DNA of 64,000 nucleotides from Escherichia phage SP27, in the sequence record LC494302.1. The stretch is one strand, 5' to 3'. Shown piece after piece: positions 1 to 64,000 of the stretch. Below the pieces are notes generated by a model, which searched no databases, had not been told where the DNA came from, and was given only the letters and a program-made list of their open reading frames with translations. Within the stretch, counting starts at the first letter, position 1, and the number at the start of each line of letters is the position of its first letter. The position numbers and the translations under genes are program-made.

Positions 1-46
1 CAGGTACAATATTTCCGTACTTAACCATTCTTGTAAAAGGTAACAT
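1..46 (-). CDS. 5' end of a leftward gene (partial, continues beyond window start)
   Basis: Minus-strand ATG (rc of 44-46) 7 nt after strong SD AAGGAGGG (rc of 51-58); reads MLPFTRMVKYGNIVP; divergent from the + strand array. Confidence 0.5.
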   Translation of the reverse strand, partial: MLPFTRMVKYGNIVP

Positions 47-94
47 AAATCCCTCCTTATTCATTATATCATATTTACCCCATAAAGAAAACCC

Positions 95-123
95 TTGACA
101 TCCTTTCAGTACTGGTGTACTAT
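95..123 (+). promoter_or_regulatory. sigma70-like promoter of Fam-A array
   Basis: TTGACA 95-100 /17 nt/ TACTAT 118-123; SD AAGGAG 134-139; ATG 149. Confidence 0.65.
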
Positions 124-148
124 AGAAGGAATATAAGGAGAACTACAC

Positions 149-376
149 ATGACAAATACTCTTAAGTACTACCTCAATACTCTAAATGAACTAGAGTACG
201 GGGAATTTCTCGCGGATAGTTCGTGGCTAATTGAGCTAAAAAATTATAATAGTCCAGGATGCACCCTTATGATGAACAATGCAATTGATACCCTCATTGT
301 GAGTATTTTACACAGCAACATCTGCGGGGATAGCAATAAACAATTATCAAAAATCTTAGTACTGCTATCTATATGA
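149..376 (+). CDS. Fam-A mini-protein (divergent first member)
   Basis: 75 aa; SD AAGGAG; LKYYLNTL near N-term, ILVLLSI at C-term. Confidence 0.75.
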   Translation: MTNTLKYYLNTLNELEYGEFLADSSWLIELKNYNSPGCTLMMNNAIDTLIVSILHSNICGDSNKQLSKILVLLSI

Positions 377-576
377 ATATCGAACAGTACTACATCGATG
401 CACTACCAACAAAAGGTCTACGTGAAAGCCTACTGCATACACAAACTAATTTCAAACACCTCAAACGTAGCCCTAAACTCCTGAACTCGTACAGGAATAA
501 TAACATAAGAAATGCTTTACAAGGGGTAGAATGTATGCAATACTATTACATCCTTACCCTATTAATTGAGTACTAA
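373..576 (+). CDS. Fam-A mini-protein
   Basis: 67 aa; ATGA overlap with upstream stop; EQYYIDALP ... YYILTLLIEY. Confidence 0.8.
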   Translation: MNIEQYYIDALPTKGLRESLLHTQTNFKHLKRSPKLLNSYRNNNIRNALQGVECMQYYYILTLLIEY

Positions 577-577
577 T

Positions 578-787
578 ATGAATACTGAACATAAAGAATT
601 CTACACCAAATACCTTAGCAACGAAGAACAATTGTTTCTAAGGAGTGTATCACCTGTAAGTACCAATACTCAATTCGGTAGAGATTGCTTTAATAATTGT
701 ATACGTAGTACTCTAGAAGCAATCGAATGCAATAACAAAAATATTATGTACTCAGGTTTAATAGGACTAATATATTTCTATGAATAA
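578..787 (+). CDS. Fam-A mini-protein
   Basis: ATG in conserved TAATATG junction (track start 566 is TTG, rejected); MNTEHKEFYTKYL ... LIGLIYFYE. Confidence 0.75.
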   Translation: MNTEHKEFYTKYLSNEEQLFLRSVSPVSTNTQFGRDCFNNCIRSTLEAIECNNKNIMYSGLIGLIYFYE

Positions 788-974
788 TCATAAAGATTTC
801 TATTGTAGTAAACTACCCAAACAAGAACAGCTATCATTCTCTTTAGCACCACCTATGAGAAAGGATAATCTGTATTATAATTACGATTTCAGGATGGTGA
901 CACGTTATGCAATAGAACATCAGTTCCCTGAAACTAAGTACCGCTCTATCCTGAACCTCATCTTTAAGTTCTAA
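780..974 (+). CDS. Fam-A mini-protein
   Basis: 64 aa; MNNHKDFYCSKLP ... ILNLIFKF. Confidence 0.8.
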   Translation: MNNHKDFYCSKLPKQEQLSFSLAPPMRKDNLYYNYDFRMVTRYAIEHQFPETKYRSILNLIFKF

Positions 975-1026
975 AAGGTACACCAGGGACCGAGTACTTT
1001 AATATAGTAAGGCTAATTACATTATA

Positions 1027-1212
1027 ATGAATCATATAAGCTACTACTACCAACAACTATCCGACAGAGACAAGTACAGTCACAACTCCCATGTGTGGTA
1101 CTACAAACGCGGCAGTATAAGAGACAAACAACATTACTTCTGTATTTCTATTAAAGAAGCACTGACAACTAAGTACACGTACCGAGCAGTACTTAAACTT
1201 ATTGAAATGTAA
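1027..1212 (+). CDS. Fam-A mini-protein (LKLI subtype)
   Basis: 61 aa; ISYYYQQL ... KYTYRAVLKLIEM. Confidence 0.8.
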   Translation: MNHISYYYQQLSDRDKYSHNSHVWYYKRGSIRDKQHYFCISIKEALTTKYTYRAVLKLIEM

Positions 1213-1222
1213 AGAGAATACT

Positions 1223-1405
1223 ATGAACATTGAATTGTACTTAAGTAAATTACAGCCTGGCGATAGATTCATCTACAATAAGTTCGAATTCAACTACAAG
1301 AACGGGAGCAACAAATATCGTCGAGGATACCTATATACAAGCACAAGAGATGCACAAAACGAAAAGTACACATACAGAGAAGTACTTAAACTAATCTCTA
1401 TTTGA
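1223..1405 (+). CDS. Fam-A mini-protein (LKLI subtype)
   Basis: ATG 1223 (track start 1202 is TTG); MNIELYLSKL ... KYTYREVLKLISI. Confidence 0.75.
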   Translation: MNIELYLSKLQPGDRFIYNKFEFNYKNGSNKYRRGYLYTSTRDAQNEKYTYREVLKLISI

Positions 1406-1413
1406 GGTAATAT

Positions 1414-1599
1414 ATGAATACATTTGAGTACTATACCAATAAACTATCTATGCCTGAAAGATCTCATCTCTATGTGTGGAGAAATGCGTATAAAAGCGGC
1501 AATAAACTTATACAAAGAAATTCCCTTACAGTGTGTACAAATTTAATTAAAGCAGAGTACCGCACATATATTGAAGTACTCAAACTGATAGCAATATAA
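1414..1599 (+). CDS. Fam-A mini-protein (LKLI subtype)
   Basis: 61 aa; MNTFEYYTNKL ... YIEVLKLIAI. Confidence 0.8.
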   Translation: MNTFEYYTNKLSMPERSHLYVWRNAYKSGNKLIQRNSLTVCTNLIKAEYRTYIEVLKLIAI

Positions 1600-1607
1600 G
1601 GTACTCT

Positions 1608-1787
1608 ATGCAAGAATTCTATATCTATAACCTCCAGCACAAAGATAGATACAACTATAATAAATTCCAAAGGTACTACACAGTCGGGAACAAAAGAGAT
1701 AAAAAACGTTATCTACTCTCGTGTACAGTAGAAGCACAAAACGAAAAGTACACGTACAGAGAAGTACTTAAACTAATCTCAATCTAA
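1608..1787 (+). CDS. Fam-A mini-protein (LKLI subtype)
   Basis: 59 aa, below ORF-track cutoff; hand-translated MQEFYIYNLQHKDRY...NEKYTYREVLKLISI; fills array gap. Confidence 0.7.
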   Translation: MQEFYIYNLQHKDRYNYNKFQRYYTVGNKRDKKRYLLSCTVEAQNEKYTYREVLKLISI

Positions 1788-1794
1788 GGTAGAC

Positions 1795-1983
1795 ATGAAC
1801 ACTTTTGAGTACTACTTCAATAAACTAAACCACATAGAACAAAGTATGCACAACTCATTTATTCAGCACCATCAATCATCTGCACATGGAATTAAAAATA
1901 TATCGATTGAGATTATCACTACCCGTGTACAGTCATCTGAACGTTATATGTATATTGATGTACTGAAACTCATCTCTATGTAA
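1795..1983 (+). CDS. Fam-A mini-protein (LKLI subtype)
   Basis: 62 aa; MNTFEYYFNKL ... YIDVLKLISM. Confidence 0.8.
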   Translation: MNTFEYYFNKLNHIEQSMHNSFIQHHQSSAHGIKNISIEIITTRVQSSERYMYIDVLKLISM

Positions 1984-1991
1984 GGAATAAT

Positions 1992-2171
1992 ATGCAAGAA
2001 TACTATATAGAACACATAAGCATTAAAGACCGTTTCATGTACGACACCTTCGTGAAGTACTACAACCTGGCAACTAACAGTACTAAAAATATTAATCTCA
2101 ATAGCTGCATTCATCACGCACTAACAAAAGATAATCCCTTCAGGGAAATCCTCGCACTAGCATCTGTATAA
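1992..2171 (+). CDS. Fam-A mini-protein
   Basis: 59 aa, below track cutoff; hand-translated MQEYYIEHISIKDRF...FREILALASV. Confidence 0.65.
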   Translation: MQEYYIEHISIKDRFMYDTFVKYYNLATNSTKNINLNSCIHHALTKDNPFREILALASV

Positions 2172-2181
2172 AGGAAACCAA

Positions 2182-2841
2182 ATGAAACTTAATGCACACA
2201 GCAAACAATACCTTAAGCACTTTAAGTACCTCAACAGTATTCAAGCAGAATCTATTACATCTGCATATACGTATCACCCAAATGTACTAAAGAAACGAAA
2301 TAAAAAGAAAAAATCCAGAAATGTTCTCGTATCTAAGAACCTCAAATCGTACTTGAAGAAAAATAATATAGCTCTTGCTTTTATTAATATCTATAATACT
2401 GATTTAAAAGTATTGAGTACTAATACCAGCACAAAAGCACTAAAGAATGCATCTATCTATATACACATGGATAATATCCCGTGCACTATAATTCTATCTT
2501 TCGGGAATGTATACTTCTTCGGGAATTGTAATAGCACCCATGATATCAGTACTGCACAATTCCAAATCGGCGATATGTACTGCATGGGTTCAGAAAAAAT
2601 ACACGATAACATGCACTTCTTCCAAAAGCAACGTACTAACGAAACTGATACAGTACTGCAATTCCTCAAAGAATTACAAGGCAAAGAATTATCAGAAGAA
2701 GATCTATTCATGTACAGTACTGTAATCGATAATCCAGAACTCTATAAAAACGCGTACAATCTAACAAAACATGTACAGGAACTTATCAGTACTGATAAGA
2801 AATTTCATCACCTCATTACGTATATTTCAAACTATGTATAA
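2182..2841 (+). CDS. Fam-C-like protein embedded in Fam-A array
   Basis: 219 aa; SD AAGGAA; carries LSEEDLFMYSTVID = Fam-C core with Q replaced by M; Lys-rich patch KKRNKKKKSR. Confidence 0.8.
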   Translation: MKLNAHSKQYLKHFKYLNSIQAESITSAYTYHPNVLKKRNKKKKSRNVLVSKNLKSYLKKNNIALAFINIYNTDLKVLSTNTSTKALKNASIYIHMDNIPCTIILSFGNVYFFGNCNSTHDISTAQFQIGDMYCMGSEKIHDNMHFFQKQRTNETDTVLQFLKELQGKELSEEDLFMYSTVIDNPELYKNAYNLTKHVQELISTDKKFHHLITYISNYV

Positions 2842-3016
2842 AGAATACTACAAAGATAAAATCCCAATGCATCTACAACACCATATACCAAACGTTGCAT
2901 TGGGTATCAAAGATCACGCAAAGATAATGTTCCAACAATGTACTAAGTACACGCTCATATACGATGATAATCCATATATGCTGTACTACGTAGTAATGCT
3001 AACATTCAGGTACTAA
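2834..3016 (+). CDS. Fam-A mini-protein
   Basis: ATG 2834 overlapping upstream stop (track start 2771 rejected); MYKEYYKDKIP ... VVMLTFRY. Confidence 0.75.
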   Translation: MYKEYYKDKIPMHLQHHIPNVALGIKDHAKIMFQQCTKYTLIYDDNPYMLYYVVMLTFRY

Positions 3017-3017
3017 T

Positions 3018-3197
3018 ATGAATACTTATAAAGAATTCTACCTCTCGTACCTTAATTCCGATATAGTAACATCCAATACATTCAGTACTAAAATTATCTA
3101 TAATGAATTAATGAAAGAATGTATTAAAGGTGCTATTAACCCTAAAGATACGTATGACTTGTACTATGCAGTACTAACCCTTGTTTTCACGAAATAA
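3018..3197 (+). CDS. Fam-A mini-protein
   Basis: 59 aa, below track cutoff; TAATATG junction; hand-translated MNTYKEFYLSYL...YYAVLTLVFTK. Confidence 0.7.
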   Translation: MNTYKEFYLSYLNSDIVTSNTFSTKIIYNELMKECIKGAINPKDTYDLYYAVLTLVFTK

Positions 3198-3205
3198 CAC
3201 ATAAT

Positions 3206-3397
3206 ATGAATAACCACAAAGAATACTACATAGAGAAACTCCCAATGTATCTCCAACACCTTGTACCAACAGAACCATTGGGTATAGAAAAAAACTACGA
3301 AAAAGACTACTTCATTCAGTGCACTAAATCCTCGATATATATTGAAGACTATAATCGAGTACTGTATCACATCCTTTTACTAATATATAGGTACTAA
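3206..3397 (+). CDS. Fam-A mini-protein
   Basis: 63 aa; MNNHKEYYIEKLP ... ILLLIYRY. Confidence 0.85.
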   Translation: MNNHKEYYIEKLPMYLQHLVPTEPLGIEKNYEKDYFIQCTKSSIYIEDYNRVLYHILLLIYRY

Positions 3398-3398
3398 T

Positions 3399-3581
3399 AT
3401 GCACAAAGAATACTACACACAATTTCTCCCCAGCATTTTTGAACACTACGCCAGATACAAAGTCCCTATGGATAACGATTTGGCAGTACTGGGATTCAAT
3501 AACTGCATAGAACGAAGTATAGAAAATAGTAGTAGTTATGACCAGCTATATAACACTATCCTACTTATATTCAGGTACTAA
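3399..3581 (+). CDS. Fam-A mini-protein
   Basis: 60 aa; TAATATG junction; MHKEYYTQFLP ... ILLIFRY. Confidence 0.85.
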   Translation: MHKEYYTQFLPSIFEHYARYKVPMDNDLAVLGFNNCIERSIENSSSYDQLYNTILLIFRY

Positions 3582-3582
3582 C

Positions 3583-3771
3583 ATGCATAAAGAATACTAC
3601 ACAAAATATTTCCCAATGTACCTCAGAACTAATCTATTAGATAAACCTCGCGGTATCAATGCACAAAATGATAAAGTGTATTTTACTATGTGCACTAAAG
3701 CATGTATACTAGATTTTGACAGCTACCATCGAGTACTGTATCATACCCTGTACCTAGCTTTCGTATTCTAA
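3583..3771 (+). CDS. Fam-A mini-protein
   Basis: ATG 3583 right after upstream stop (track start 3538 rejected); MHKEYYTKYFP ... LYLAFVF. Confidence 0.8.
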   Translation: MHKEYYTKYFPMYLRTNLLDKPRGINAQNDKVYFTMCTKACILDFDSYHRVLYHTLYLAFVF

Positions 3772-3780
3772 GAGAACAAT

Positions 3781-3966
3781 ATGCATAAAGAATTCTACTT
3801 AAGCCATCTGGATCTAAACTCCCAAATGCTTATACCACTAATCCCAATAGATATCAAGGATAAGAAAAATACCGAACAATTCATTTACCATACACAGTGT
3901 GCGATCACCCCAAATTACATTCCATATGAATTGTACTACATTATCGCCCTAATATATAGGTACTAA
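3781..3966 (+). CDS. Fam-A mini-protein
   Basis: 61 aa; MHKEFYLSHL ... IIALIYRY. Confidence 0.85.
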   Translation: MHKEFYLSHLDLNSQMLIPLIPIDIKDKKNTEQFIYHTQCAITPNYIPYELYYIIALIYRY

Positions 3967-3967
3967 T

Positions 3968-4153
3968 ATGCATAGAGAATACTACACACAATTTGTTAAA
4001 GGGAACTACAAACATGCCGTACCCAGAACCCCTTTAAATTCTCATGACCCAAGTACTATATTCTTGTTTAATGACGCAATACGTACAGTACTCAATACTA
4101 AAGATGAAGATGTGCAGTACGTATTCTTACTATTACTTATATACAGACACTAA
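3968..4153 (+). CDS. Fam-A mini-protein
   Basis: 61 aa; TAATATG junction; MHREYYTQFV ... LLLLIYRH. Confidence 0.85.
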   Translation: MHREYYTQFVKGNYKHAVPRTPLNSHDPSTIFLFNDAIRTVLNTKDEDVQYVFLLLLIYRH

Positions 4154-4158
4154 CTAAT

Positions 4159-4341
4159 ATGAATAAAGAACATAAAGAATTCTATATACGAAAACTAACA
4201 TTCGTCCCCGTAAGAATATATAAAGAATGCGACCCAAGATTATACCTATGGCACTTCAATGAGTGCATAAAAGATTCTATATACCATAAGAACTATAAAG
4301 AACAATTGTGCTCAGTACTAACACTAGTACTATCATATTAA
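4159..4341 (+). CDS. Fam-A mini-protein
   Basis: 60 aa; MNKEHKEFYIRKL ... LTLVLSY. Confidence 0.85.
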   Translation: MNKEHKEFYIRKLTFVPVRIYKECDPRLYLWHFNECIKDSIYHKNYKEQLCSVLTLVLSY

Positions 4342-4356
4342 TTAATAGAGAATACT

Positions 4357-4548
4357 ATGTATAAAAACTTCTATATAAGTAAACTAAAAGAAAATGAACA
4401 AGTATGGATTAGATCTATAATTCCACTGGCATTTAATAGATATGCATTTAACAGATGTACCGAGATTGCTATAGACCCTTATAATATTAAAGAGAATGTA
4501 CAGTATAATCAGTACTACTATATCTTAATGCTTATATATAGAAAGTAA
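4357..4548 (+). CDS. Fam-A mini-protein (last member)
   Basis: 63 aa; MYKNFYISKL ... YILMLIYRK. Confidence 0.8.
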   Translation: MYKNFYISKLKENEQVWIRSIIPLAFNRYAFNRCTEIAIDPYNIKENVQYNQYYYILMLIYRK

Positions 4549-4564
4549 TTAAACACATAGAGAC

Positions 4565-4649
4565 AGGGGAAGCTCCTAGTGAACAACCTTTATGTACAGG
4601 CGAATTGTTAAAATTCAGCCTGGACAAATGCGATCACTAGGATTCTCCC
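4565..4649 (+). other. long imperfect hairpin right after Fam-A array
   Basis: GGGGA-agc-TCCTAGTGA 4565-4581 pairs with TCACTAGGA-t-TCTCCCC 4633-4649 (9 + 5 bp, 51-nt loop). Confidence 0.5.
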
Positions 4650-4659
4650 CAGGCTAAAC

Positions 4660-4935
4660 CCCGTAATCATAGGTAGTCATAAGTAATCATATATAAACAT
4701 TTATATGAGCACCGTAGAATCACAGAATGATTATATATGATTCAGTACTGATTAGTATAGACAAGAATGCTCAAGAATGCACGGGAAGGATTCAGAATGA
4801 TTCAGTACTGATATGCCACTAAGTAGGCAGAGGAAGTCTGCCGTACTTTGTAGTTTCCAAGCTCCTTTTCCATTTTGCAAATTACATCAAATGTAATCAA
4901 AAGTAATCACGCAATGATTAGTACTGAATTATTAC
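4660..4935. repeat. cluster of short iterated words (GTAATCA, GAATGATT, AAGAATGC)
   Basis: GTAATCA at 4662, 4682, 4893, 4903; GAATGATT(A/C) three or four times; no ORF. Confidence 0.6.
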
Positions 4936-5185
4936 TTTCACCTTAATTTCAATTACCCCTTTACCCTTCGGGGTAAAATTCAATTACCCCTTGAGGCTCC
5001 AGCAAAAAGTTGGTTAGTACTCCATCCTAAATCTGGATCGTAAAAAATTTGGAGTACCTATGAAATAAAAGTTGGATCTTCGAAAGTTGAAATTTACGTT
5101 GGGACATATAGGATTTGTGGGATATAATGAGTTTTGTAGCGATACAGATTATACGATTTCAGTACTGAATAATGAAAGAAAGCTA

Positions 5186-5318
5186 TTGACATTATGATTC
5201 AGTACTGTATAATGTTCTACATAGGGTGATGAGTTGCTGCGAACAATTCATTTACTCTACCTCCTGTCGTGAGACAGTACAGAAAAGATAGTTCCTCCTG
5301 TGGTGGTACATCTTTTTG
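5186..5318 (+). ncRNA. candidate promoter-driven short RNA (about 100 nt) with two CCUCCUGU motifs
   Basis: TTGACA 5186-5191 /16/ TATAAT 5208-5213; no ORF with SD; CTGTC-GTGA-GACAG hairpin; direct repeat CCTCCTGT(C/G)GTG; T-run 5312-5316. Confidence 0.4.
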
Positions 5319-5544
5319 AACCTCATATGAAAATCGTAATAACAGTACTGATATTAACAGAATGGTGTCAGTACTGATTTTAATCTAAAGCATTATGCCA
5401 CCAGCACAAGTTGGTGGATTCCCTCTAACAGTATTCAGTACTACATGATAGTCTTCATCCTCCTAGGGTAACATAGTGAGGGCTATGATGGCAGTACTGA
5501 ATACTCCCTTTCAAAAGATAGATCTATGGTATAGTACTGACGGA

Positions 5545-5730
5545 TTTTGGGTGTAGTTACCCTGGATGGATTTTGGACGTAGATATGTCTAGCCCTCCAG
5601 AAGTCTGGAAGTAAAGATGGCTATCCATCTAGACGGCTAAACGGATAGATTTCTGGATGGCTGGATGGCTAGACGTTTGGACGGCTAAACGGCTAGATGG
5701 TTACACGTCTGGAAGTATAGACGGCTAAAT
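5545..5730. repeat. iteron-like cluster
   Basis: GACGGCTAAA at 5632, 5680, 5720; CTGGATGG at 5562, 5653, 5661; GTCTGGAAGTA at 5603, 5707; ATTTTGG(G/A)CGT repeated. Confidence 0.7.
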
Positions 5731-5884
5731 CAAAATTTTATTTTGTTTTTTCCAATAGTTCCCCTACCGCGTGGGGATAGTTTCCCCGCAGTATCTGGAG
5801 TTAGATTTTTCTGAATCTGGAATCATTATCTTATAAACTGGGGGCAATGTCAACGGCCTGGACGGATATTTTTAAAAATTTTTT

Positions 5885-5978
5885 CAGTACTGAATTTTGG
5901 GCGTAACTATGCACCCGGTGGGCTTGAGTCTTTCTCGACTTGATGGAACTATTATACAGTACTGAAAAAATAAAGCAA
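5885..5978 (-). ncRNA. short promoter-driven noncoding unit, CCCAYMGGGTGC core (unit a)
   Basis: Minus strand TTGCTT (rc 5973-5978) /16/ TATAAT (rc 5951-5956); reads ...CAAGCCCACCGGGTGCATAGTTACGCCCAAAATT; no ORF. Confidence 0.4.
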
Positions 5979-6008
5979 TACCCTGGAAGCAAAAAAGTTT
6001 TAATTAAT

Positions 6009-6091
6009 TTGCTTGCTATCCTGGGCCGGACTATGGTACTATATTTCAGTACTGAGAAAGTGCGTTTACCTGCTAGGGTGCGGGAGTGTAT
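6009..6091 (+). ncRNA. short promoter-driven noncoding unit (unit b)
   Basis: TTGCTT 6009-6014 /17/ TATGGT 6032-6037; ...CTGCTAGGGTGCGGGAGTGTATCC then T-run 6084-6090. Confidence 0.35.
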
Positions 6092-6194
6092 CCTTTTTTT
6101 ATATCTTGAATTTTGGGCGTAATTCCGCACCCTCTGGGGTTTCCGCTTTCTCGCGTCTATGTAGTAATTATACGCTTTTTCAGGATCAAGTCAA
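6092..6194 (-). ncRNA. short promoter-driven noncoding unit (unit c), convergent with unit b
   Basis: Minus strand TTGACT (rc 6189-6194) /16/ TATAAT (rc 6167-6172); reads ...AACCCCAGAGGGTGCGGAATTACGCCCAAAATT. Confidence 0.4.
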
Positions 6195-6352
6195 TACCTA
6201 AAAACAAAATAATTGAAAATAATTTAACGCGTTTAAACGGCCCGTAACGCCCTGGAATGATTAGAATGGTGCAAATGTATAGCTTAGGTGTATTAATGCG
6301 TTAGAATGCGTCTGAGGCCGTTTTATGGGGTGTAGTAGTGATTTGGTTGATT

Positions 6353-6439
6353 CAGTACTGAATAATAGTACTCCTATATAGAAAGATAGTTCCCCTGGAT
6401 GGTTGCAGTACTGAATAATAGTACTCCTATATAGAAAGA
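6353..6439 (+). repeat. 34-bp direct repeat x2
   Basis: CAGTACTGAATAATAGTACTCCTATATAGAAAGA at 6353-6386 and 6406-6439, 19-bp spacer. Confidence 0.85.
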
Positions 6440-6470
6440 AAACTATTTTAAAAGTATTTGTAGAAAGTAC

Positions 6471-6530
6471 TTGCACCGTACTGATAAAAGCGTATAATGT
6501 TTTACATCGAGAGCGGGAACACTTCCCGCT
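6471..6530 (+). promoter_or_regulatory. early promoter + 5' hairpin cassette
   Basis: TTGCAC 6471-6476 /16/ TATAAT 6493-6498; hairpin AGCGGGAA-CAC-TTCCCGCT 6512-6530. Confidence 0.75.
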
Positions 6531-6553
6531 ACACATTAAGAGAGATTAAAACG

Positions 6554-6916
6554 ATGGCGACTCAAATCAATAAAATCATGCTTAACCTGGTAAACTTCCG
6601 CGATGAGATGAAAGGTCTTCCGGCTGAAACTGTAAAAATTCACATTGCAGCTTATCGGGAACTTATTGCAATGTTGCCGCTTAAGCGTGAACAATACGCC
6701 GCTACTTTGATGCTGGATTCAATGATCCATATAATGATCTCAAATGATTTAACGATGGTTTATCAGTACATGGGCGAAAATTTCGCGGTGTGTAGTAAGC
6801 CAGTACCAGGGATGGCAACAACTGAGGAATTGCACGGCTTAAACTTAAAACAAGATGCATGGGATAATATGCCTCGTTTCCTGGTATGGGCTGACAGTGG
6901 CAAAATTTACAAATAA
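6554..6916 (+). CDS. hypothetical protein
   Basis: 120 aa from MATQINKIM; track start 6497 lies inside promoter/hairpin so rejected; SD AAGAGAG. Confidence 0.8.
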   Translation: MATQINKIMLNLVNFRDEMKGLPAETVKIHIAAYRELIAMLPLKREQYAATLMLDSMIHIMISNDLTMVYQYMGENFAVCSKPVPGMATTEELHGLNLKQDAWDNMPRFLVWADSGKIYK

Positions 6917-6930
6917 GTTTAATAAAGTAC

Positions 6931-7248: not shown

Positions 7249-7262
7249 TAGAATTTATTTAA

Positions 7263-57250: not shown

Positions 57251-57259
57251 GAATGAAAT

Positions 57260-57673
57260 ATGAAACTGTATCATGCGAGTACTGTAAAAATTGATAACTT
57301 TTATATCCCGTATGGTGGCCTTCATATGGGAGGTAAACACAGTGCTTTAGAAGCTGCCTTACGCAAGCTGAGAAGCCCACTAAACGTTGTTGACGCATGT
57401 ACAGTATACTTGCATACCTTAGAAGTTGATGTTGATAACGTGCTTCTGTGTGAAGATTTAGGCAGTGATGATGAGTGGCGTTCACTTATTGAGAATTGCA
57501 CGGCTCAAGGTTATGATGCTGTTCAGTACAAAAATGATTACGAGCCAGACAATGTTCCTAGCTTTATGATTTGGGATACATCTAAAATTCGTATTATTGA
57601 AGTTGATGCGATGCATATGGATGAAGCTGAAATGATCATCGAAGATTTCCTTGATGAATATGAAGGTGTATAA
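57260..57673 (+). CDS. hypothetical protein, not Fam-C (array insert)
   Basis: 137 aa; MKLYHASTVKIDNFYIPYGGLHMGGKHSALEAA, acidic C-terminus; no core motif. Confidence 0.8.
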   Translation: MKLYHASTVKIDNFYIPYGGLHMGGKHSALEAALRKLRSPLNVVDACTVYLHTLEVDVDNVLLCEDLGSDDEWRSLIENCTAQGYDAVQYKNDYEPDNVPSFMIWDTSKIRIIEVDAMHMDEAEMIIEDFLDEYEGV

Positions 57674-58191
57674 TGATTGAACCTATGACAGTACTAGCAC
57701 GTACTAAATTATTATTGAAGATTGCTGAAATATTCACTGTTCTTATGTACAATAATCAAGACATAACTGACTTAGGTATTAAGCAACCGTGGCAAATTAC
57801 AAAGTTCACGGCGTTCCACCGATTGTCATATAATGGTGAAACTGTTCTTGATTTTAATCCAAAAGCCACGTTCGTGAATTACGCTGCATTATATGGATGT
57901 AATGGTGGATTAACAAATGACTTCACTGAAATAAAAGTACAATCAGAATCATTAGAATTTAATGACTTAATATATCCAGAATTTAAGTTAACAGAAGAAA
58001 CACTATTTCAGTACTCACTAATTATAAAAGATGTATATGATCTTGAGTACTACAAAGAGTTAGTAGATATTTTTAAGAATACTCGACTTTCAAAAGATAT
58101 TGTGATATTCTGGTATGTTGAGTATGTTACAGAGGAATTGCTAGAAGAATTTCTTCTAAATATGACAGCTATAAAGGAGAAGTTATGTTAG
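57673..58191 (+). CDS. Fam-C protein
   Basis: 172 aa; TAATG junction; core LTEETLFQYSLIIK. Confidence 0.85.
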   Translation: MIEPMTVLARTKLLLKIAEIFTVLMYNNQDITDLGIKQPWQITKFTAFHRLSYNGETVLDFNPKATFVNYAALYGCNGGLTNDFTEIKVQSESLEFNDLIYPEFKLTEETLFQYSLIIKDVYDLEYYKELVDIFKNTRLSKDIVIFWYVEYVTEELLEEFLLNMTAIKEKLC

Positions 58192-58658
58192 ATATTTTAG
58201 GAAACATCGACACTGCAAATTATTTTATTCAAGATGCATTGTTTAATACAGTACAACAAGGTTTAGAAGTTCACCACAATGTTTATCAGGGTGATGGATA
58301 TTTTGTTGATATTATCGAGACACGTAAAAATACATTTAATGTTAACATTACGACGCTTGGAAGACAGAACATTGCACGAATTTTAGTAAGTAAAGATGAA
58401 ATAGTACTGAGATACAGTGCTAAGTTTATGTTGACTTATAAGAAAAAAACTGATATGTTCAGTACTAATTTATTTGATGAGCCATTTGACCTTGAAGATA
58501 TTGAAGCTACTTTCTTTACTCAAAGTACTATGGTAAAATACACTGATGTTCAATTTTCTGCTGATGTAATGTCAGAAACATTACAAATGATCAAGGTATT
58601 ATTTTATGCATTTGAGCAATTTAGAGAAGAAAGAAACAAGGTTAACAACCACAGATGA
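58185..58658 (+). CDS. Fam-C-like protein (degenerate core)
   Basis: 157 aa; IEATFFTQSTMVK. Confidence 0.8.
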   Translation: MLDILGNIDTANYFIQDALFNTVQQGLEVHHNVYQGDGYFVDIIETRKNTFNVNITTLGRQNIARILVSKDEIVLRYSAKFMLTYKKKTDMFSTNLFDEPFDLEDIEATFFTQSTMVKYTDVQFSADVMSETLQMIKVLFYAFEQFREERNKVNNHR

Positions 58659-59019
58659 ACTAATAGAGGCGATCACTAAGGAGTCAAAATACCATAAAGG
58701 GATTCGTCTATACTTTATAGATACTGGTTCGATGGAAGGTACATACATTTATGGTTCACAATCGTTGTCTTATGATGCAATGCCAAATAAACATGTTAAA
58801 ATCTTTTTAGGTTCAAGTAATAAAACTTTCTTGACAATTAATGATAAAAACGTTATTATGAATTCGTTGGGTCATGATAAGGTGGAAATTGATCTAAACA
58901 CGCTGGAGGATATTGATTTTTTTCAATACGAGTGTTTAGGTGTTGACTTACATGGCATTAGTAGCGATATGATAAAATCATTAATCAAATATTTCGAAGG
59001 TGTTCATAAATGTATCTAA
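58606..59019 (+). CDS. Fam-C protein
   Basis: 137 aa (53-nt overlap, start uncertain); core LEDIDFFQYECLGV. Confidence 0.7.
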   Translation: MHLSNLEKKETRLTTTDELIEAITKESKYHKGIRLYFIDTGSMEGTYIYGSQSLSYDAMPNKHVKIFLGSSNKTFLTINDKNVIMNSLGHDKVEIDLNTLEDIDFFQYECLGVDLHGISSDMIKSLIKYFEGVHKCI

Positions 59020-59507
59020 CTAAATCAATGAAAAATTCATTTGATAAAATTAAGAGTTGTCTTGATGGAGAAAATATTACAAGTGTTACACAAACTGCTG
59101 ACCAAATTCAAAGCAGTTCAAGTGATTGCACTGTTATTTTTGGTTTACATAGTCTGCGTTTATCAATAGTAAATAATATTGACAACACTGCTATTGTAAT
59201 CACACCATGCAATATTCAAAATGAGAATGGTGTATATCTTCATCACATGGGAACAGTATTTCACATTTTCAATTCAAACGAAAACATTGTTAAGGAATAC
59301 AATACTCTTAATATTGATTCAGGTGAATTATTTCAAATGAGTACTTTGTACTCATGTAATTTTACAGATACTTCATGTATTTTGCCATTTTTCTTGGAAA
59401 TTATTAAGAAAATGGAAAATTTAAAACGTGAATACAATAAAGAAATGGTTCCTGAAGCTATATTAAATATTACTAATGCTATAGAGAAGTATAATGCAGT
59501 GACTTAA
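59010..59507 (+). CDS. Fam-C protein (last of contiguous array)
   Basis: 165 aa; core DSGELFQMSTLYS. Confidence 0.85.
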   Translation: MYLTKSMKNSFDKIKSCLDGENITSVTQTADQIQSSSSDCTVIFGLHSLRLSIVNNIDNTAIVITPCNIQNENGVYLHHMGTVFHIFNSNENIVKEYNTLNIDSGELFQMSTLYSCNFTDTSCILPFFLEIIKKMENLKREYNKEMVPEAILNITNAIEKYNAVT

Positions 59508-59549
59508 TAAAAACGCACATGGAGTGCATTAGAAGATCAAGGATAGATC

Positions 59550-60023
59550 ATGGAGATTAAAACTGTTGAAAATGGGAAAATTGATGACATTTTAGAGTTG
59601 GACGCATTCAAAGTTCATGATATAATGTTTAATGTGAAGGACATTATTCAATGTCTATTTTTGTGTAGCAAGACAATGCATGATTTTTTTCACAACCCAA
59701 ATACTAACGTTTTTATACTAACAATCAGTACTGAAAACTCGTTTATCATGGGTATGCCTATGAGTACAAATGAACAATATATTGATTGTGTTATTCGTAA
59801 TAACGATAGTATTACGCCACAATCTGAAGTACGTAAAAAGAAAAACACCTACACAATCAAAGATGATAAAATTATGATGTGCTGTAGTAAAGGGTTTATA
59901 TTAGATAATTTTATCGTAAAAGACAGTTATCACGACTTTAAAGTATCTGAAAATCAATCCAATGTAGTTCTTTATGCGAGTGACATAGAAAGTCTAACAG
60001 TTAAAGATCCTAGTTTGGAGTAA
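59550..60023 (+). CDS. hypothetical protein
   Basis: 157 aa; SD AAGGA; MEIKTVENGKIDD; no family motif. Confidence 0.8.
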   Translation: MEIKTVENGKIDDILELDAFKVHDIMFNVKDIIQCLFLCSKTMHDFFHNPNTNVFILTISTENSFIMGMPMSTNEQYIDCVIRNNDSITPQSEVRKKKNTYTIKDDKIMMCCSKGFILDNFIVKDSYHDFKVSENQSNVVLYASDIESLTVKDPSLE

Positions 60024-60025
60024 TT

Positions 60026-60157
60026 ATGTCGAAGAAAGTTAACAATTTCGTACAGAAACATATGAATGAGTTTAATAAACCTCAGACACATGTGGATCGT
60101 AAAAAAGAAATGAAAAATGGTAAAGTAAAACACAAGTCGAGATTTATTCTCGACTAA
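60026..60157 (+). CDS. small basic protein
   Basis: 43 aa, below track cutoff; SD GGAG 5 nt upstream; hand-translated MSKKVNNFVQKHMNEFNKPQTHVDRKKEMKNGKVKHKSRFILD. Confidence 0.55.
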   Translation: MSKKVNNFVQKHMNEFNKPQTHVDRKKEMKNGKVKHKSRFILD

Positions 60158-60167
60158 TTTTTTGTCT
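60136..60167 (+). terminator. intrinsic terminator overlapping the gene's 3' end
   Basis: GTCGAGA-TTTAT-TCTCGAC 60136-60154 then TAATTTTTTG. Confidence 0.65.
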
Positions 60168-60186
60168 AAATTTATGAGGATTGTAT

Positions 60187-61035
60187 ATGTTAGACATTTC
60201 AGATTTTCTTAATTTTAAAAAGTATTCAGTACTTGAACATATCAACGAATTTCTGAATTCTACTACACCATTTGGTATCAGTACATCAGATGCATACGAT
60301 GGATATACAATCTTCCCATACAATGACTTTCAAATTTCCGTCAAAAAAGGTTTTACAAAAGAAGTTGCAATTCGTGATGTAGTAATGTATAGCGATTCTT
60401 CTATTTCTTACTGTCATGATGTGAACAAGTTTGAATCTCTTGCAACACCTAATTGTTCATACTACAAATCACATGACACGATGATGTATAAAGAACAACA
60501 TATCAATGGTGTTTCGTTCTATAAAACTAGCAGTGATAAATCATATACATCTAGAGATGATTTTGGAAAATACACATGTACTATGCACACGGATAATGAA
60601 AAAACAAATTACACTCATTCATTCGAGTCCAAATTCCAAGAGAGTGAAGTTTCAAATATCACTATACAAGAACAGGTTTCAGAAGGCATTGTATATCGTA
60701 GCACTGCATTCTTTCGCATGAAAGATATTGCCACAGGCAGACCAATGATGTACAATATTGACATATACATGAAAGGTGATATATCCGAAGTAGTGATTAG
60801 TACTGGTTATCGTGAAAAATATACAGTTACAATGGAATCACCAGATGCATCATTAGTTCATCTCTTTAACAATTTATATACATTCCAATTCGAACTTAGT
60901 TTCGATCCAAATGAATATCAAATATTTGATATATTAAAAAGTAATATTATTAATAAGTTAGAATATTACTACAAGTTAGGTGGTAAGATGTGCATAGTTA
61001 ATACTATGTTACATAACATAAAAGAAACATTATAA
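60187..61035 (+). CDS. hypothetical protein
   Basis: 282 aa from MLDISDF; SD GAGGA 6 nt upstream (track start 60181 is TTG); ESKFQESEVS is only a faint core resemblance. Confidence 0.8.
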   Translation: MLDISDFLNFKKYSVLEHINEFLNSTTPFGISTSDAYDGYTIFPYNDFQISVKKGFTKEVAIRDVVMYSDSSISYCHDVNKFESLATPNCSYYKSHDTMMYKEQHINGVSFYKTSSDKSYTSRDDFGKYTCTMHTDNEKTNYTHSFESKFQESEVSNITIQEQVSEGIVYRSTAFFRMKDIATGRPMMYNIDIYMKGDISEVVISTGYREKYTVTMESPDASLVHLFNNLYTFQFELSFDPNEYQIFDILKSNIINKLEYYYKLGGKMCIVNTMLHNIKETL

Positions 61036-61051
61036 ATCTGGAGGATTTGGT

Positions 61052-61345
61052 ATGGATACTAAATTCAAAATTATTTTTAAAACTAAGCCGTATATTCCAC
61101 ATACAGCAGAACGTTTTATACCACATGGTGCTGAGGAAATTATTCACCAAGATGGTACTAAGTTATACCTTGTTCCTTGTTCTTATGAACGTGCAGTAGA
61201 AATGTTACTAATGAATGCTAGACTATGCAAAAACAAGTACATTAGTTACCTATACAATGAACATATTTTAGATTTCAATGATGAAAATATGTTCATTCTA
61301 GCAATTGAGGATTTTGATAACTGGTACAATATTATTAAAATCTAA
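61052..61345 (+). CDS. hypothetical protein
   Basis: 97 aa; SD TGGAGGA; MDTKFKIIFKTKPY. Confidence 0.8.
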   Translation: MDTKFKIIFKTKPYIPHTAERFIPHGAEEIIHQDGTKLYLVPCSYERAVEMLLMNARLCKNKYISYLYNEHILDFNDENMFILAIEDFDNWYNIIKI

Positions 61346-61353
61346 TGAAAATA

Positions 61354-61401
61354 ATGTGAACATATTAGATTCTTGTGATATAATGTTCACATCTTTTTTT
61401 T
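61354..61401 (+). terminator. intrinsic terminator with a TATAAT box in its loop
   Basis: ATGTGAACAT 61354-61363 / ATGTTCACAT 61383-61392 (10 bp) then T8; loop holds TGaTATAAT (61376-61384). Confidence 0.75.
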
Positions 61402-61417
61402 GATAACGGAGATATAG

Positions 61418-61804
61418 ATGAATACAAGTTCAATCCTAAAAGCAATTGGTGGTGTTTTACTCATTGAAGTAAAAGGTGAACCAAAGCTATGCTGTTTAGA
61501 AGATATGAAGAATACAAAACACTTCAGTACTGGTCAGATTTTCAATGCCATTCGTATTCTAAATGACAAATCCATTGCTGATTATGGAAAAGTTTGGCCT
61601 GTATATCAAAATGCTGATGGTGATATCAGTACTGATTGGAAAACAATTGAGGCGGTACGACAAAGTTGTGAGAGTGATTGGGACTTCATTGTTGAAGTTT
61701 GTGATCAACTACAAGAAGATGTTCCAGAAATTGTCGAACGAAAAGAAGTCCTAGCACGACTTGAAAAATTCCGTCACGGAACACTACAGTATGACACAAT
61801 CTAA
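61418..61804 (+). CDS. hypothetical protein
   Basis: 128 aa; SD ACGGAG; MNTSSILKAIGGV. Confidence 0.8.
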   Translation: MNTSSILKAIGGVLLIEVKGEPKLCCLEDMKNTKHFSTGQIFNAIRILNDKSIADYGKVWPVYQNADGDISTDWKTIEAVRQSCESDWDFIVEVCDQLQEDVPEIVERKEVLARLEKFRHGTLQYDTI

Positions 61805-61853
61805 TCTGCTTATTAAAAATATCTAATTAACATTATATAAAAGGAATTTAAAA

Positions 61854-62159
61854 ATGGAAGACAATGGAATGAAATTTGATATGTTTGAAGGTGTACCAGA
61901 GTTCGATTTCAATAAACTTGAAAATGGTGAAGAATCAGAACTAGTAAGTGTTACACTAAAATCAGATACCAAAAAGAAATATTCCCCATCAGTTCGTTCA
62001 CGTTCTCAAGAAGAATATGAAACCTTCATTGAGAGTATTCATTACGAAACGTTCCATCATGCAGATGGTACTCCGTATGAAGTTCGTGTTACAGTACTGA
62101 AGCCTGAAGTAAACCCAATGGAAAATCTACGTCCTGTTTACTGCTGGGCAAGCCACTAA
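61854..62159 (+). CDS. hypothetical protein
   Basis: 101 aa; SD AAAGGAA; MEDNGMKFDMFEG. Confidence 0.8.
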   Translation: MEDNGMKFDMFEGVPEFDFNKLENGEESELVSVTLKSDTKKKYSPSVRSRSQEEYETFIESIHYETFHHADGTPYEVRVTVLKPEVNPMENLRPVYCWASH

Positions 62160-62169
62160 TAAACCAAAG

Positions 62170-62198
62170 GACGGGATATAATATCTCGTCTTTTTTTT
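62170..62198 (+). terminator. intrinsic terminator with TATAAT inside the stem-loop
   Basis: GACGGGATA 62170-62178 / TATCTCGTC 62182-62190 (one G-U) then T8; TATAAT 62177-62182. Confidence 0.75.
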
Positions 62199-62210
62199 GT
62201 CTGGAGATAT

Positions 62211-63059
62211 ATGAAACTTTATCTAATCGTTGACTACAGTAAGGGTTATTATGACTACGCAGAAGAATCTGAAGGGTATTGCTCGTCTACTAATGTCAAT
62301 GTACGCACCAGTAGTACACATGAGCATGAATCTATTACAAACCTAAAAGATTTCATCGCATATCGAGCATTTGAAAAGAATTTCTGTCGTAGTAGATATT
62401 CGAAGTTTGAGTACCCGTTAATTGATGTTCCTGATGAATTGATGTTCCAGTTAATGCTCACTGGAGTACAAGATTATGATTACATCGCGTACAATCACAT
62501 TACTAAGAAAATTTATATCGGTACGTCAACACATGACATTTCTATGTATGCATCATGCCCCGATGATCGAATGAATGATAGAAAATCATACTATAGTGGT
62601 TCAGTTGGTTCAAATGATTCATTAAATGAAAATTTATTCTTTGAGTACGAGTTTGATAATCATCGAGGGAAAAAAGACCGAGAAGATTATTGTACTGAAA
62701 TTGATAGTACCAATGGATATGAAGAAGTGAAAGAAGCGATAATGCCATATATCCTTGACAAGTACTACAAAGATTTTCAGTACTGTAGTAATTTTCTAAT
62801 CCGAAATTCTATCATAATCGGTCGTCAAAGTACTGCATTCTCTAAGTACTACAATGATTCCCCTGTTGCTGAAAATGAAAACTGTAATATTCTCTCAATC
62901 CCACGTGAAGATATGGTATTCATGTTCACATCTTTCATTGAAGATGATGAGTTGTATGTAAAAAACAAGCACAGGTTCATGCCAAGTAAGATTGAGGTTA
63001 TGAGAAGCTTAAGTGCAGATATCTTAACTAATTTCACTGAAAAAACAGAATACAACTGA
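62211..63059 (+). CDS. Fam-C-like protein (outlying copy)
   Basis: 282 aa; SD TGGAG; core VPDELMFQLMLTGV. Confidence 0.8.
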   Translation: MKLYLIVDYSKGYYDYAEESEGYCSSTNVNVRTSSTHEHESITNLKDFIAYRAFEKNFCRSRYSKFEYPLIDVPDELMFQLMLTGVQDYDYIAYNHITKKIYIGTSTHDISMYASCPDDRMNDRKSYYSGSVGSNDSLNENLFFEYEFDNHRGKKDREDYCTEIDSTNGYEEVKEAIMPYILDKYYKDFQYCSNFLIRNSIIIGRQSTAFSKYYNDSPVAENENCNILSIPREDMVFMFTSFIEDDELYVKNKHRFMPSKIEVMRSLSADILTNFTEKTEYN

Positions 63060-63088
63060 GACATACCATAAGTTTATGATATAATGTA

Positions 63089-63122
63089 AGGTGACAGCAG
63101 AATATGTTGTCGCCTTTTTTTT
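63089..63122 (+). terminator. intrinsic terminator preceded by GATATAAT
   Basis: AGGTGACA 63089-63096 / TGTCGCCT 63108-63115 (one G-U) then T8; TATAAT 63080-63085. Confidence 0.75.
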
Positions 63123-63734
63123 AATCCTGAAAGGTTCCATATGGAAATGATTAAAGCCTAATCCACTCGAAAAGTAGAGGGTAGATGAGTAGTCCTTTCA
63201 GTACGAACAGCAAATGAAACCCGTTAGATGATGGCATAGTTTGAACCACTCACGGCAATGCGGCTGTATAAAGAACTCCAATAGGATAAAGAGAGTTCCT
63301 CGATAGACATATAAGGATCGCACCTTACCAATTATCTAAGGGAGATTTCATGAGAAATTTGCGGTCGGAATTATACAATATAGTTGCGTCCAAATTTTGT
63401 GAAATCAAATACAAGTACTGGTCATATGGTATTTGTATTATGTGTCGGGATGTTTAAGACCGACGACCGTTGCTACAAGAACCGCGATAGAGAGAAACAG
63501 AGCAACCCGCTTTCGTCTCGTAAGAGAATTCGTGATATGAACTATGTGAAGGCCACCAGCGTCAAACTTTTTTGTTCTTTCCCCTGCGGGGGGATGAAAT
63601 ATGCTCAAGCAAACCCCGTCAATATTAATTAAAAGAAAATAGTACTTGTAGAATTAGACATGCGTAGCATGGTAATTCTACTGATGTTGATGAAATCAAC
63701 GTCACGTATATTCATTGATGTTTCCATAGGAATA

Positions 63735-64000
63735 ATGATGGCATTTATTAGAAAAGAAAAAACTGTTACTTATAAAACTTTGAATTTTGATGATTGCATT
63801 AATCAATCACAAGACGAAGATATCTTTACTGGATATGTGGTTATTAAAGAAAAAGGATGCATTTCTTATATAAAGGAATTGCAAAATGGAATTGAAGTGA
63901 CTTCAGTTAAATTACTTCCTACTCAAAAACCAACAATATCAAAAGCCCAGTATGGTAATTATTTTGAAGAAAGATATAGTAATAATTCAATAAGTGTTAA
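63735..64000 (+). CDS. hypothetical protein (partial, runs past window end)
   Basis: Not in track (no stop in window); ATGATG at 63735/63738 after AGGA; open for 88 codons: MMAFIRKEKTVTYKTLNFDDCINQSQDEDIF... Confidence 0.65.
   Translation, partial: MMAFIRKEKTVTYKTLNFDDCINQSQDEDIFTGYVVIKEKGCISYIKELQNGIEVTSVKLLPTQKPTISKAQYGNYFEERYSNNSISV

Follow-up and report, generated by a model that had tools for sequence, protein, structure and literature searches.

Why should a virus that avoids so many palindromes fill its genome with one of them? The question is raised by a stretch of 64,000 nucleotides from Escherichia phage SP27 (LC494302.1; the whole stretch, positions 1 to 64,000, is called the window), in which the hexamer AGTACT recurs again and again. 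The window comes from a jumbo phage of the Asteriusvirus group infecting Escherichia coli (121Q, PBECO4, G17, JP4, BAU.Micro_ELP-22), with megablast identities of 94-98% and patchy coverage across the first 20 kb. Its GC content is 34.4%, and the 169 genes called in it, almost none of them with a known function, all lie on the + strand, as do the promoters and genome regions given below. Throughout the genomes of the RaK2/121Q-like jumbo phages, selection on double-stranded DNA keeps AGTACT, preferably in the form CAGTACTG or TTCAGTACTGAA, as a highly iterated palindrome. An earlier note, made from the letters of the window, had proposed the over-representation and a selection acting on DNA. 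Beyond that note, the excess is a trait of a whole clade, its dense zone coincides with the terminal repeat, and there are two AGTACT-free islands, one of which carries an oriented variant, AGTACA.

Abundance of AGTACT and its conservation

Exact counts in the window are 270 for AGTACT, 65 for CAGTACTG, 21 for TCAGTACTGA and eight for TTCAGTACTGAA. Dinucleotide shuffles (n=100) give 18.6±3.8 copies of AGTACT and never more than 30, and a third-order Markov model gives 33.9 when the motif is masked; the unmasked expectation of 110.5 already absorbs the motif's own sub-words. AGTACT is the first-ranking hexamer under the third-order model and reaches 14.7 times its first-order expectation, rather than the under-representation that would mark an avoided restriction target. 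The sites extend over the entire window (1..64000): 184 are located within genes, in all three frames (66/47/71), 83 are intergenic and three fall at gene boundaries. With its flanks the consensus reads T-T-n-C-AGTACT-G-n-A-A. The surroundings of 211 of the 270 sites are unique, in the sense that they share less than 65% identity with the flanks of any other site, and therefore repeated modules do not account for the count. The strong excess in coding and noncoding DNA claimed by the earlier note is thus borne out, and its hand counts (about 30 sites in 1-4550 and five in 41521-42000) agree with the exact ones. The same is true of its examples of sites in more than one frame, FSTE (at 7839) and SVLK (at 18706). 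It had listed at least seven copies of the 12-mer palindrome TTCAGTACTGAA; seven of the eight copies are indeed among those listed, two of its positions were off by 3-9 bases, and the copy at 46099 was missed. The first copy occupies 5158..5169, and the others start at 5883, 6351, 7839, 8139, 10452, 22109 and 46099.

Among the 64 possible hexamer palindromes, 26 have zero copies in the window, including GGATCC, CTGCAG, GGTACC, CGTACG and GAGCTC. Such absence is the usual sign of restriction avoidance, and the contrast that had been drawn between AGTACT and the palindrome avoidance of phages is real.

The excess is not confined to the window. The related genome EC22.5-2 (351,992 bp) holds 919 copies of AGTACT, where 101 are expected from a first-order model, 136 from a masked third-order model and 352 from an unmasked one, so that the claim survives the comparison with a whole-genome third-order model that had been proposed as a way of refuting it. 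Every 5-kb bin of this genome is enriched except one, which belongs to an island, and the structural and replication regions, with about 1-3 sites per kb, are still several-fold over expectation. More distant relatives were sampled over 22-42 kb around the portal gene of each. AGTACT occurs 76 times in a Klebsiella RaK2-like phage (10.4 expected), 52 times in Cronobacter GAP32 (7.8), 49 times in Yersinia fHe-Yen9-04 (6.7), 46 times in Xanthomonas XbC2, a Mimasvirus (6.9), and 35 times in Salmonella 7t3 (6.0). In all five it ranks first or second among hexamers, and the enrichment in these portal regions is 6-7-fold. The corresponding regions of Vibrio phage 2.275.O (six copies, 7.6 expected), Pseudomonas PA5oct (none, 9.2 expected) and Agrobacterium Atu_ph07 (two, 2.7 expected) show no such excess. 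Neither does 50 kb of T4, a phage with matching host and GC content (12 copies, 8.8 expected), nor 50 kb of E. coli K-12 (three copies, 4.8 expected); the sites are about 40 times denser in the phage than in the sampled host DNA (2.6/kb vs 0.06/kb). AGTACT enrichment is therefore a trait of the RaK2-like clade, whose members have portal proteins at least about 71% identical.

What keeps the sites in place can be read from the genes that contain them. When synonymous codons were permuted within each gene, leaving the protein and the codon usage intact, 56.5±5.5 copies of AGTACT were obtained and at most 74, against the 184 observed; shuffling the order of codons left 22.3±4.5. The possibility, admitted by the earlier note, that codon usage alone would reproduce the count thereby falls away. 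Outside the islands, AGT-ACT encodes 66 of the 111 Ser-Thr dipeptides and (A)GTA-CTN encodes 71 of the 131 Val-Leu dipeptides. Comparison with EC22.5-2, which is about 95% identical, points in the same direction. In this alignment 226 of 245 sites (92.2%) are fully conserved, against 79% of frame-matched random hexamers (193.7±6.3 of 245) and 79.2% of flanking hexamers. Third codon positions are 97.6% identical within AGTACT and 91.3% outside it, and non-coding positions 99.0% and 94.7%, respectively. The conserved footprint is made up of the six core bases (97.6-98.8% against a background of 94.8%), with slight protection at -4 to -1, and conservation follows the flanks: 96.7% for CAGTACTG, 93.1% where one flank matches and 88.0% where none does. 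In the portal gene a single site is common to four genera while the remaining sites differ, which indicates conservation with turnover.

The flanks also tell in which molecule the motif is read. C is found in 43% of sites at -1 and G in 46% at +1, T in 43-47% at -3/-4 and A in 47-49% at +3/+4, so that the preferences at -1/+1, -3/+3 and -4/+4 are mutually reverse-complementary although all 169 genes are on one strand. Symmetric flanks in unidirectionally transcribed DNA imply that AGTACT is read on the duplex with two-fold symmetry, and not in RNA or protein. Because the codon shuffles fall short, third positions and non-coding sites are conserved, and the flanks are reverse-complementary, purifying selection at the level of DNA, beyond codon and amino-acid usage, is supported, in agreement with the earlier proposal.

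Terminal repeat, promoters and site-free islands

The earlier note had given a similar density for the other stretches that it checked, but over the window the density is not uniform. There are 6.5 sites per kb in the first 25.7 kb, none at all in 25751-30410 and 32850-40548, 7.0 per kb in the 2.4 kb between these two islands (30411-32849) and 3.7 per kb from 40.5 to 64 kb. The first of these boundaries coincides with an end of the terminal repeat. Phage fEgEco12 has direct terminal repeats of 20,993 bp, defined by PhageTerm and restriction digests (PMC13070987). Its position 1, the left physical end, aligns to position 4822 of the window and the end of its left repeat to about 25750, and because its termini align in this way the window is a collapsed concatemer junction, with the right unique end in 1-4821, the terminal repeat in 4822-25750 and the left unique region in 25751-64000. 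The repeat (4822..25750), mapped in this way onto the fEgEco12 termini, contains 135 AGTACT sites (6.45/kb), at 10.8 per kb in non-coding and 4.1 per kb in coding DNA, and is an early region. The right-hand unique end (1..4821), where about 20 paralogous genes for proteins of about 60 amino acids stand in tandem, contains 32 sites (6.6/kb).

In the terminal repeat the motif is built into promoters. With at most two mismatches to the consensus allowed, 29 sigma70-like promoters were found there, and AGTACT abuts the -35 or the -10 element in 18 of them. In 11 the site lies against the -35 element (AGTAC followed directly by TTGCAA); in 11 it lies in the spacer against the -10 element (AGTACTG followed directly by TATAAT), where it also supplies the TG of an extended -10. 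Four promoters combine the two, the centres of their sites being separated by 20 bp, as at 10114..10147, where AGTAC and TTGCAA are followed by N9 and by cAGTACTG and TATAAT. In three of the other 11 promoters AGTACT overlaps the 3' end of the -35 element. Both observations of the earlier note on promoters were sound, namely the sites directly upstream of -35 elements (AAAGTACTTGCAA) and the pairs of sites around promoters, which are located at 13005/13027, 15853/15884, 16124/16155 and 23641/23663. The first pair belongs to the promoter AGTACTA-TTGACA-N9-AGTACTGG-CATAAT (13005..13040). In the second (15853..15897) one site is upstream of the -35 element and the other abuts the -10 element; in the third (16124..16168) one is upstream of the -35 element TTGACA and AGTACTG abuts TATAAT. 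The fourth pair encloses a promoter-like region (23641..23680). Overlap with core promoter elements in 18 of 29 promoters, together with symmetric flanks, is what would be seen if the palindrome were the operator of a dimeric repressor. Confinement to regulatory regions, which would also be expected of an operator, was not observed, since 184 of the 270 sites are inside genes and the structural-gene regions of the relatives are enriched too.

An early-gene cassette of about 90 nt, AAAAAGTACTTGCAA-N17-TATAAT-ACATC-GC hairpin-Shine-Dalgarno-ATG, is present in the repeat in at least 16 copies. The cassettes span 6442-24885 (for example 10110-10199, 14518-14607 and 22132-22221) and consist of an A-tract, AGTACTTGCAA or TTGACA, N17, TATAAT and gttttACATC, followed by a GC-rich hairpin in the 5' untranslated region (like GGGGAGAAATGGTTCTCCCC), a Shine-Dalgarno sequence and ATG. 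The hairpin looks like a stabiliser of the 5' end of the mRNA rather than a terminator, because a T-run is absent. A second repeated module (14971-15118, 19006-19100, 21998-22145 and 24254-24348) has a TTGACT-N17-TATTAT promoter and then a conserved segment of about 50 nt (…CAGCCCACCGGGTGCATAAATGTATCT) that contains no open reading frame (ORF); these modules may be small RNA genes, and no Rfam match was found to them or to anything else in the window.

The two islands are the only AGTACT-poor stretches of the whole genome of about 350 kb, and together they comprise 12.4 kb without a single site, for which the probability is about 1e-14 at the genome-wide density and 0.03 at the density expected by chance. 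Island 1 (25751..30410) is a tandem array of about 21 paralogous genes of about 70 amino acids with an LGTNYQE motif. Eight of its ten GTAC tetramers are TGTACT, mostly at one Ala-Val-Leu position that is conserved among the paralogues, and for this reason they do not count as independent sites. A mirror polarity of TGTACT in island 1 and AGTACA in island 2 around a possible origin was considered and dropped for the same reason.

Island 2 (32850..40548) has no AGTACT and no TGTACT, and 41 copies of AGTACA on the + strand. Of these, 38 lie wholly within genes, in frames 15/12/11, and the gene sequences contain 39, where synonymous shuffles leave 14.3±3.1 and codon shuffles 4.9±2.3. AGTACA and AGTACT share their flank preferences on both sides. 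The island is present throughout Asteriusvirus and nowhere else: in TH47 (83% identity) it has 44 AGTACA and no AGTACT, in ph0011 (76% identity) 29 AGTACA and six AGTACT. The AGTACA sites are conserved above background in these divergent relatives (63% vs 48%; 42% vs 28%), and none of them corresponds to an AGTACT in either. In island 2, then, a variant that differs in one base is stably kept, in one orientation and at an equal density. Two simpler accounts were rejected. Recent acquisition of foreign DNA disagrees with the absence from both islands of all 26 avoided palindromes (16 occurrences expected) and with the conservation of island 2, AGTACA included, down to 76% identity. A synonymous escape from AGTACT disagrees with the use of all three frames, and the synonymous escape available in frame 3 (TGTACT) is never used. 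That islands of such age are still without AGTACT speaks for a selection that differs between regions and against a mutational drive acting uniformly.

The rest of the left unique region carries sites throughout. The stretch between the islands (30411..32849) has 17 (7.0/kb), almost all in coding DNA, and the tightly packed genes for proteins of about 160-190 amino acids in 40549..64000 contain 86 (3.7/kb), with AGTACA and TGTACT in a ratio of 40 to 11.

Several further observations concern the layout of this genome end. All 169 genes point inward from the left end; those of the repeat each have their own promoter, those past 25.8 kb are tightly packed and overlapping, and the arrangement recalls the early regions of T7 and T5. 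The repeat is GC-richer than its surroundings (38.8% vs about 32%), and GATC is enriched 1.7-fold inside it and depleted to about 0.4-fold outside. Two copies of ATTCAGTACTGA (4742..4813, starting at 4742 and 4802) precede the predicted left terminus at 4822 by 80 and 20 bp, and fEgEco12 likewise has two copies before its terminus at distances that differ from those of the window. A fixed relation between motif and terminus was rejected on this ground, as the two TTCAGTACTGA copies are not equally placed in the two phages. About 0.8 kb inside the left terminus, tandem repeats with a period of 24/32 nt (TCTGGACGGCTAAACGGCTAGATG, 5628-5727) are located in an ORF-free stretch of about 2 kb (4549-6553) and may be a cis-acting packaging or replication element. 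The paralogue array of the right end (149-4548, about 20 genes, about 60 amino acids, C-terminal Y.Y.EVLKLI) is AGTACT-rich, that of island 1 (25848-30332, about 21 genes, about 70 amino acids, LGTNYQE) is AGTACT-free, and Pfam gives no characterised function for either. Among the first 102 proteins of the window Pfam recognises, in the region 4822-33000, a ParE-like toxin domain, a DksA/TraR zinc finger, a GNAT acetyltransferase and DUF7249/7247/7217, which are possible host-takeover functions.

Possible readers of the palindrome

What, then, reads AGTACT? We tentatively favour a recognition site for a phage-encoded factor of two-fold symmetry that marks or occupies phage DNA. It would best account for a duplex palindrome with symmetric, graded flanks that is selected for density across the genome, belongs to one lineage, is far denser than in the host and takes up free positions of promoters as well as synonymous positions of genes. 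The existence of a protein reader is inferred, and so are its origin in the phage and a part in occupying or marking DNA instead of catalysis. A homodimeric factor of this phage lineage would recognise AGTACT, and the sites, about 40 times more frequent per kb than in the sampled host DNA, could gather the factor on phage DNA as a dense mark of identity or landing. At the early promoters of the repeat, sigma70 RNA polymerase would also face competition from an occupied site, and early transcription could thereby be timed or switched off. More speculative is the possibility that the roughly 900 sites form an identity tag encoded in the sequence, by which a lineage-specific phage factor tells phage from host DNA without base modification. 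The number of sites in one phage genome exceeds the total estimated for the host chromosome.

Several points weigh against a symmetric phage factor. The Pfam scan of the 169 window proteins found no helix-turn-helix (HTH), ribbon-helix-helix or other DNA-binding family, with the remaining genome not systematically scanned, and PHROGs assigned the proteins of island 2 to families of unknown function only. A contiguous palindrome of 6-8 bp is what restriction or modification enzymes typically recognise, more so than repressors. Coding DNA harbours two thirds of the sites, although a promoter operator has no need of them there, and a simple model of a symmetric dimer does not predict the oriented AGTACA island. 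The spacing between sites shows no significant helical period, only a local excess at 20-24 bp that comes from the promoter pairs. Finally, restriction to the clade could reflect a host factor, since the enriched phages nearly all infect Enterobacterales. Of the candidate functions that the earlier note had listed (a dimeric binding protein, a modification target, a recombination or packaging signal), only some variants are weakened by the data: a pure operator role, a host site of the SlmA type and a methyl-directed mutational ratchet.

Among the alternatives, the most probable, though still unlikely, is a target for a phage DNA methyltransferase. The palindrome could have been made by a methyl-directed ratchet of the very-short-patch type, as in Elhai's model for the cyanobacterial motif HIP1, or a methyl mark could be kept as a self label that might serve strand discrimination, protection from phage or host nucleases, or packaging. 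A contiguous hexamer palindrome with a sharp 6-bp conserved footprint is typical of restriction and modification specificity, and the phages encode several methyltransferases, among them a C5 methylase conserved across the clade. EC22.5-2 has a gene for a Dam-like N6-adenine methyltransferase of 173 amino acids (PF05869, L003:41151-41672) about 300 bp past the right end of the window, although this gene is patchy among the relatives. HIP1 has been linked to methylation (PMC5861425), and RaK2 DNA is reportedly methylated, but the only methylation reported is CpG and not AGTACT (PMC3622015). The ratchet itself fits poorly, as the transition neighbours of AGTACT (GGTACT/AGTACC, AATACT/AGTATT and AGCACT/AGTGCT) are 1.2-2.2-fold enriched and not depleted, and a uniform ratchet should have filled the two old islands, whose 12.4 kb are still empty. 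The single depleted neighbour, AGGACT/AGTCCT (0.45-0.6-fold), is a transversion neighbour and thus irrelevant to very-short-patch-like conversion, which was rejected. DNA of fEgEco12 is cut normally by ten enzymes (PMC13070987), from which it follows that there is no global hypermodification. Methylation alone, moreover, gives no reason for a 10-fold excess.

Less probable is a Chi-like function, in which AGTACT would be the attenuator or self signal of a phage helicase-nuclease or recombination machine that degrades host DNA, with the palindrome letting the signal work from either direction and AGTACA as its one-directional version. The phage/host contrast in site density (2.6/kb vs 0.06/kb, about 40-fold) would suit such a machine, and so would the genome-wide abundance, a selection that acts on density while individual sites turn over, and the strict orientation of island 2. 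A polarity test does not apply to a palindrome, which has no orientation; in island 2, 41 AGTACA stand against 0 TGTACT. In each cell these phages produce DNA equal to about seven host genomes, and their genes include exonuclease, helicase and RecA-like ones (PMC11895373). The known Chi sites, however, are asymmetric, G-rich and far sparser, and the two-fold symmetric flanks, those of AGTACA included, suggest a dimer on the duplex rather than the scanning of a single strand. Degradation of host DNA by these phages is a matter of speculation in the literature, and no nuclease has so far been linked to AGTACT.

A protein of the enterobacterial host, such as the nucleoid-occlusion factor SlmA, which the phage would exploit or titrate, is a poor candidate. 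The SlmA site GTGAGTACTCAC does have an AGTACT core (PMC3020112), the enriched phages are nearly all on Enterobacterales, and enrichment is missing from the relatives that infect Vibrio, Pseudomonas and Agrobacterium. SlmA, though, requires G1, T2, A4 and G5 (PMC3020112), and the required-flank pattern GTRAGYRCTYAC has no match in the window or in the 352-kb relative, on which ground SlmA sites were rejected; only 9% of sites have G at -1, where it is rarer than any other base, and GAGTACTC never occurs. T4 shares the host and the GC content and shows no enrichment, XbC2 is enriched and is reported on Xanthomonas, and SlmA is conserved in other gamma-proteobacteria too (PMC3020112).

A signal that acts in RNA (AGUACU or AGUAC), for instance as the target or protection site of a ribonuclease or an RNA-binding protein, is harder still to credit. 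AGTACA is biased to the sense strand (40 vs 11 in 40.5-64 kb, 41 vs 0 in island 2) and the early region has the highest density of AGTACT; against this, the flanks are reverse-complement symmetric despite unidirectional transcription, AGTACT sites are found upstream of -35 elements, non-coding sites are conserved no less than coding ones, and a palindrome would be purposeless if read single-stranded.

That amino-acid composition, codon usage or repeated promoter and paralogue modules produce the excess as a by-product has next to no chance of being right: copying accounts for some sites (at least 16 promoter cassettes are present, and the paralogue arrays share Val-Leu positions), and protein order alone lifts the expectation from 22 to 56, but the codon artefact is rejected by the synonymous and codon-order shuffles (184 observed against 56.5±5.5, maximum 74), the repeat or paralogue artefact by the unique flanks of 211 of the 270 sites, and the excess extends to all frames, to non-coding DNA and to five divergent phage lineages.

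Comparison with known motifs, and significance

The closest analogue of AGTACT is HIP1 (GCGATCGC) of cyanobacteria, a hyper-abundant palindrome found inside and between ORFs, conserved by selection and present in lineage variants, the function of which is still unknown after decades (PMC5861425). Four features that define such a motif are present in AGTACT: an excess of at least 10-fold over composition and Markov expectations genome-wide (270 vs 18.6; 919 vs 101), occurrence in all frames and between genes that is not driven by codons, conservation above the background of the same codon positions, and restriction to a lineage (five RaK2-like lineages and not three outgroups) with a variant, the AGTACA island. 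Each is a short palindrome present at ten to a hundred times its expected frequency, at densities that reach about one site per 350 nt; each lies within ORFs, in all frames, and between them, and each is conserved beyond codons and lineage-restricted with variant motifs. The differences are also clear. HIP1 is a GC-rich octamer of a cellular chromosome and AGTACT a hexamer or octamer of an AT-rich virus; AGTACT is without the depletion of neighbours that a methyl-directed ratchet predicts; and it is built into sigma70 promoters and has site-free islands, one with an oriented one-base variant.

Other known systems are more remote. The stoperators of cluster A mycobacteriophages are asymmetric sites of 13-17 bp, oriented with transcription, which number about 25-35 per genome and serve the lysogenic repressor. 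The likeness to them is loose: here too, many copies of a short site are spread over coding and intergenic DNA, and a single phage protein, also at an early promoter, would read them. The roughly 900 AGTACT sites, in contrast, are palindromic hexamers in a virulent phage, in which no repressor has been identified. Restriction-modification enzymes of the ScaI/Eco255I type target AGTACT, and the conservation footprint in the phage is exactly those six bases; phages normally avoid restriction targets, however, whereas AGTACT is about 10-fold enriched while 26 other palindromes are absent. Chi, KOPS and DNA-uptake sequences are likewise short words at high density under selection, by which a protein machine tells a genome or a direction, but they are asymmetric and strand-biased, whereas AGTACT is palindromic, has polarity only in the AGTACA island and has no known cognate machine. 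The SlmA site of E. coli shares the AGTACT core, and it is a 12-bp palindrome with a dimeric HTH reader and is scattered outside promoters (PMC3020112). Its required flanks (G1 and T2, with their mates A11 and C12) are missing from every phage site, and E. coli has about 50 SlmA sites against the roughly 900 AGTACT.

Full-text literature searches on AGTACT in phages, on these jumbo phages and on over-represented palindromes of jumbo phages found no description of the motif; promoters or methylases are described in the genome papers for CBB, RaK2, fEgEco12 and Sharanji, but AGTACT is not.

Phages are known to avoid short palindromes, whereas here a single one has been raised to a frequency of about one site per 380 bp. 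Its imprint is visible in the choice of codons, since AGTACT accounts for more than half of the Ser-Thr and Val-Leu dipeptides outside the islands. The seven tRNAs of EC22.5-2 include a tRNA-Ser with the unusual anticodon ACT, which reads AGT (L008:19489-19580), and a tRNA-Thr(TGT) (L008:20851-20924); the pair matches the frequent AGT and ACN codons that the motif brings with it, and the tRNA-Ser(ACU) may be related to the heavy use of AGT. In practical terms, digestion with ScaI or RsaI would yield hundreds of fragments from such a genome if AGTACT is unmodified. If the identity-tag reading is true, phage DNA would, for example, be spared by a nuclease that degrades host DNA, or transcription or replication factors would be concentrated on it, and the AGTACT-free islands and the oriented AGTACA hemi-sites would mark a region handled differently, in one direction or on one strand. 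Selection this strong and this broad implies a function, probably a central one, in widespread jumbo phages that are now being developed for therapy. With a genome of 350 kb, an E. coli host and internal contrasts (a dense repeat, site-free islands and an oriented variant), these phages also offer a tractable system for the question that HIP1 has posed for 30 years.

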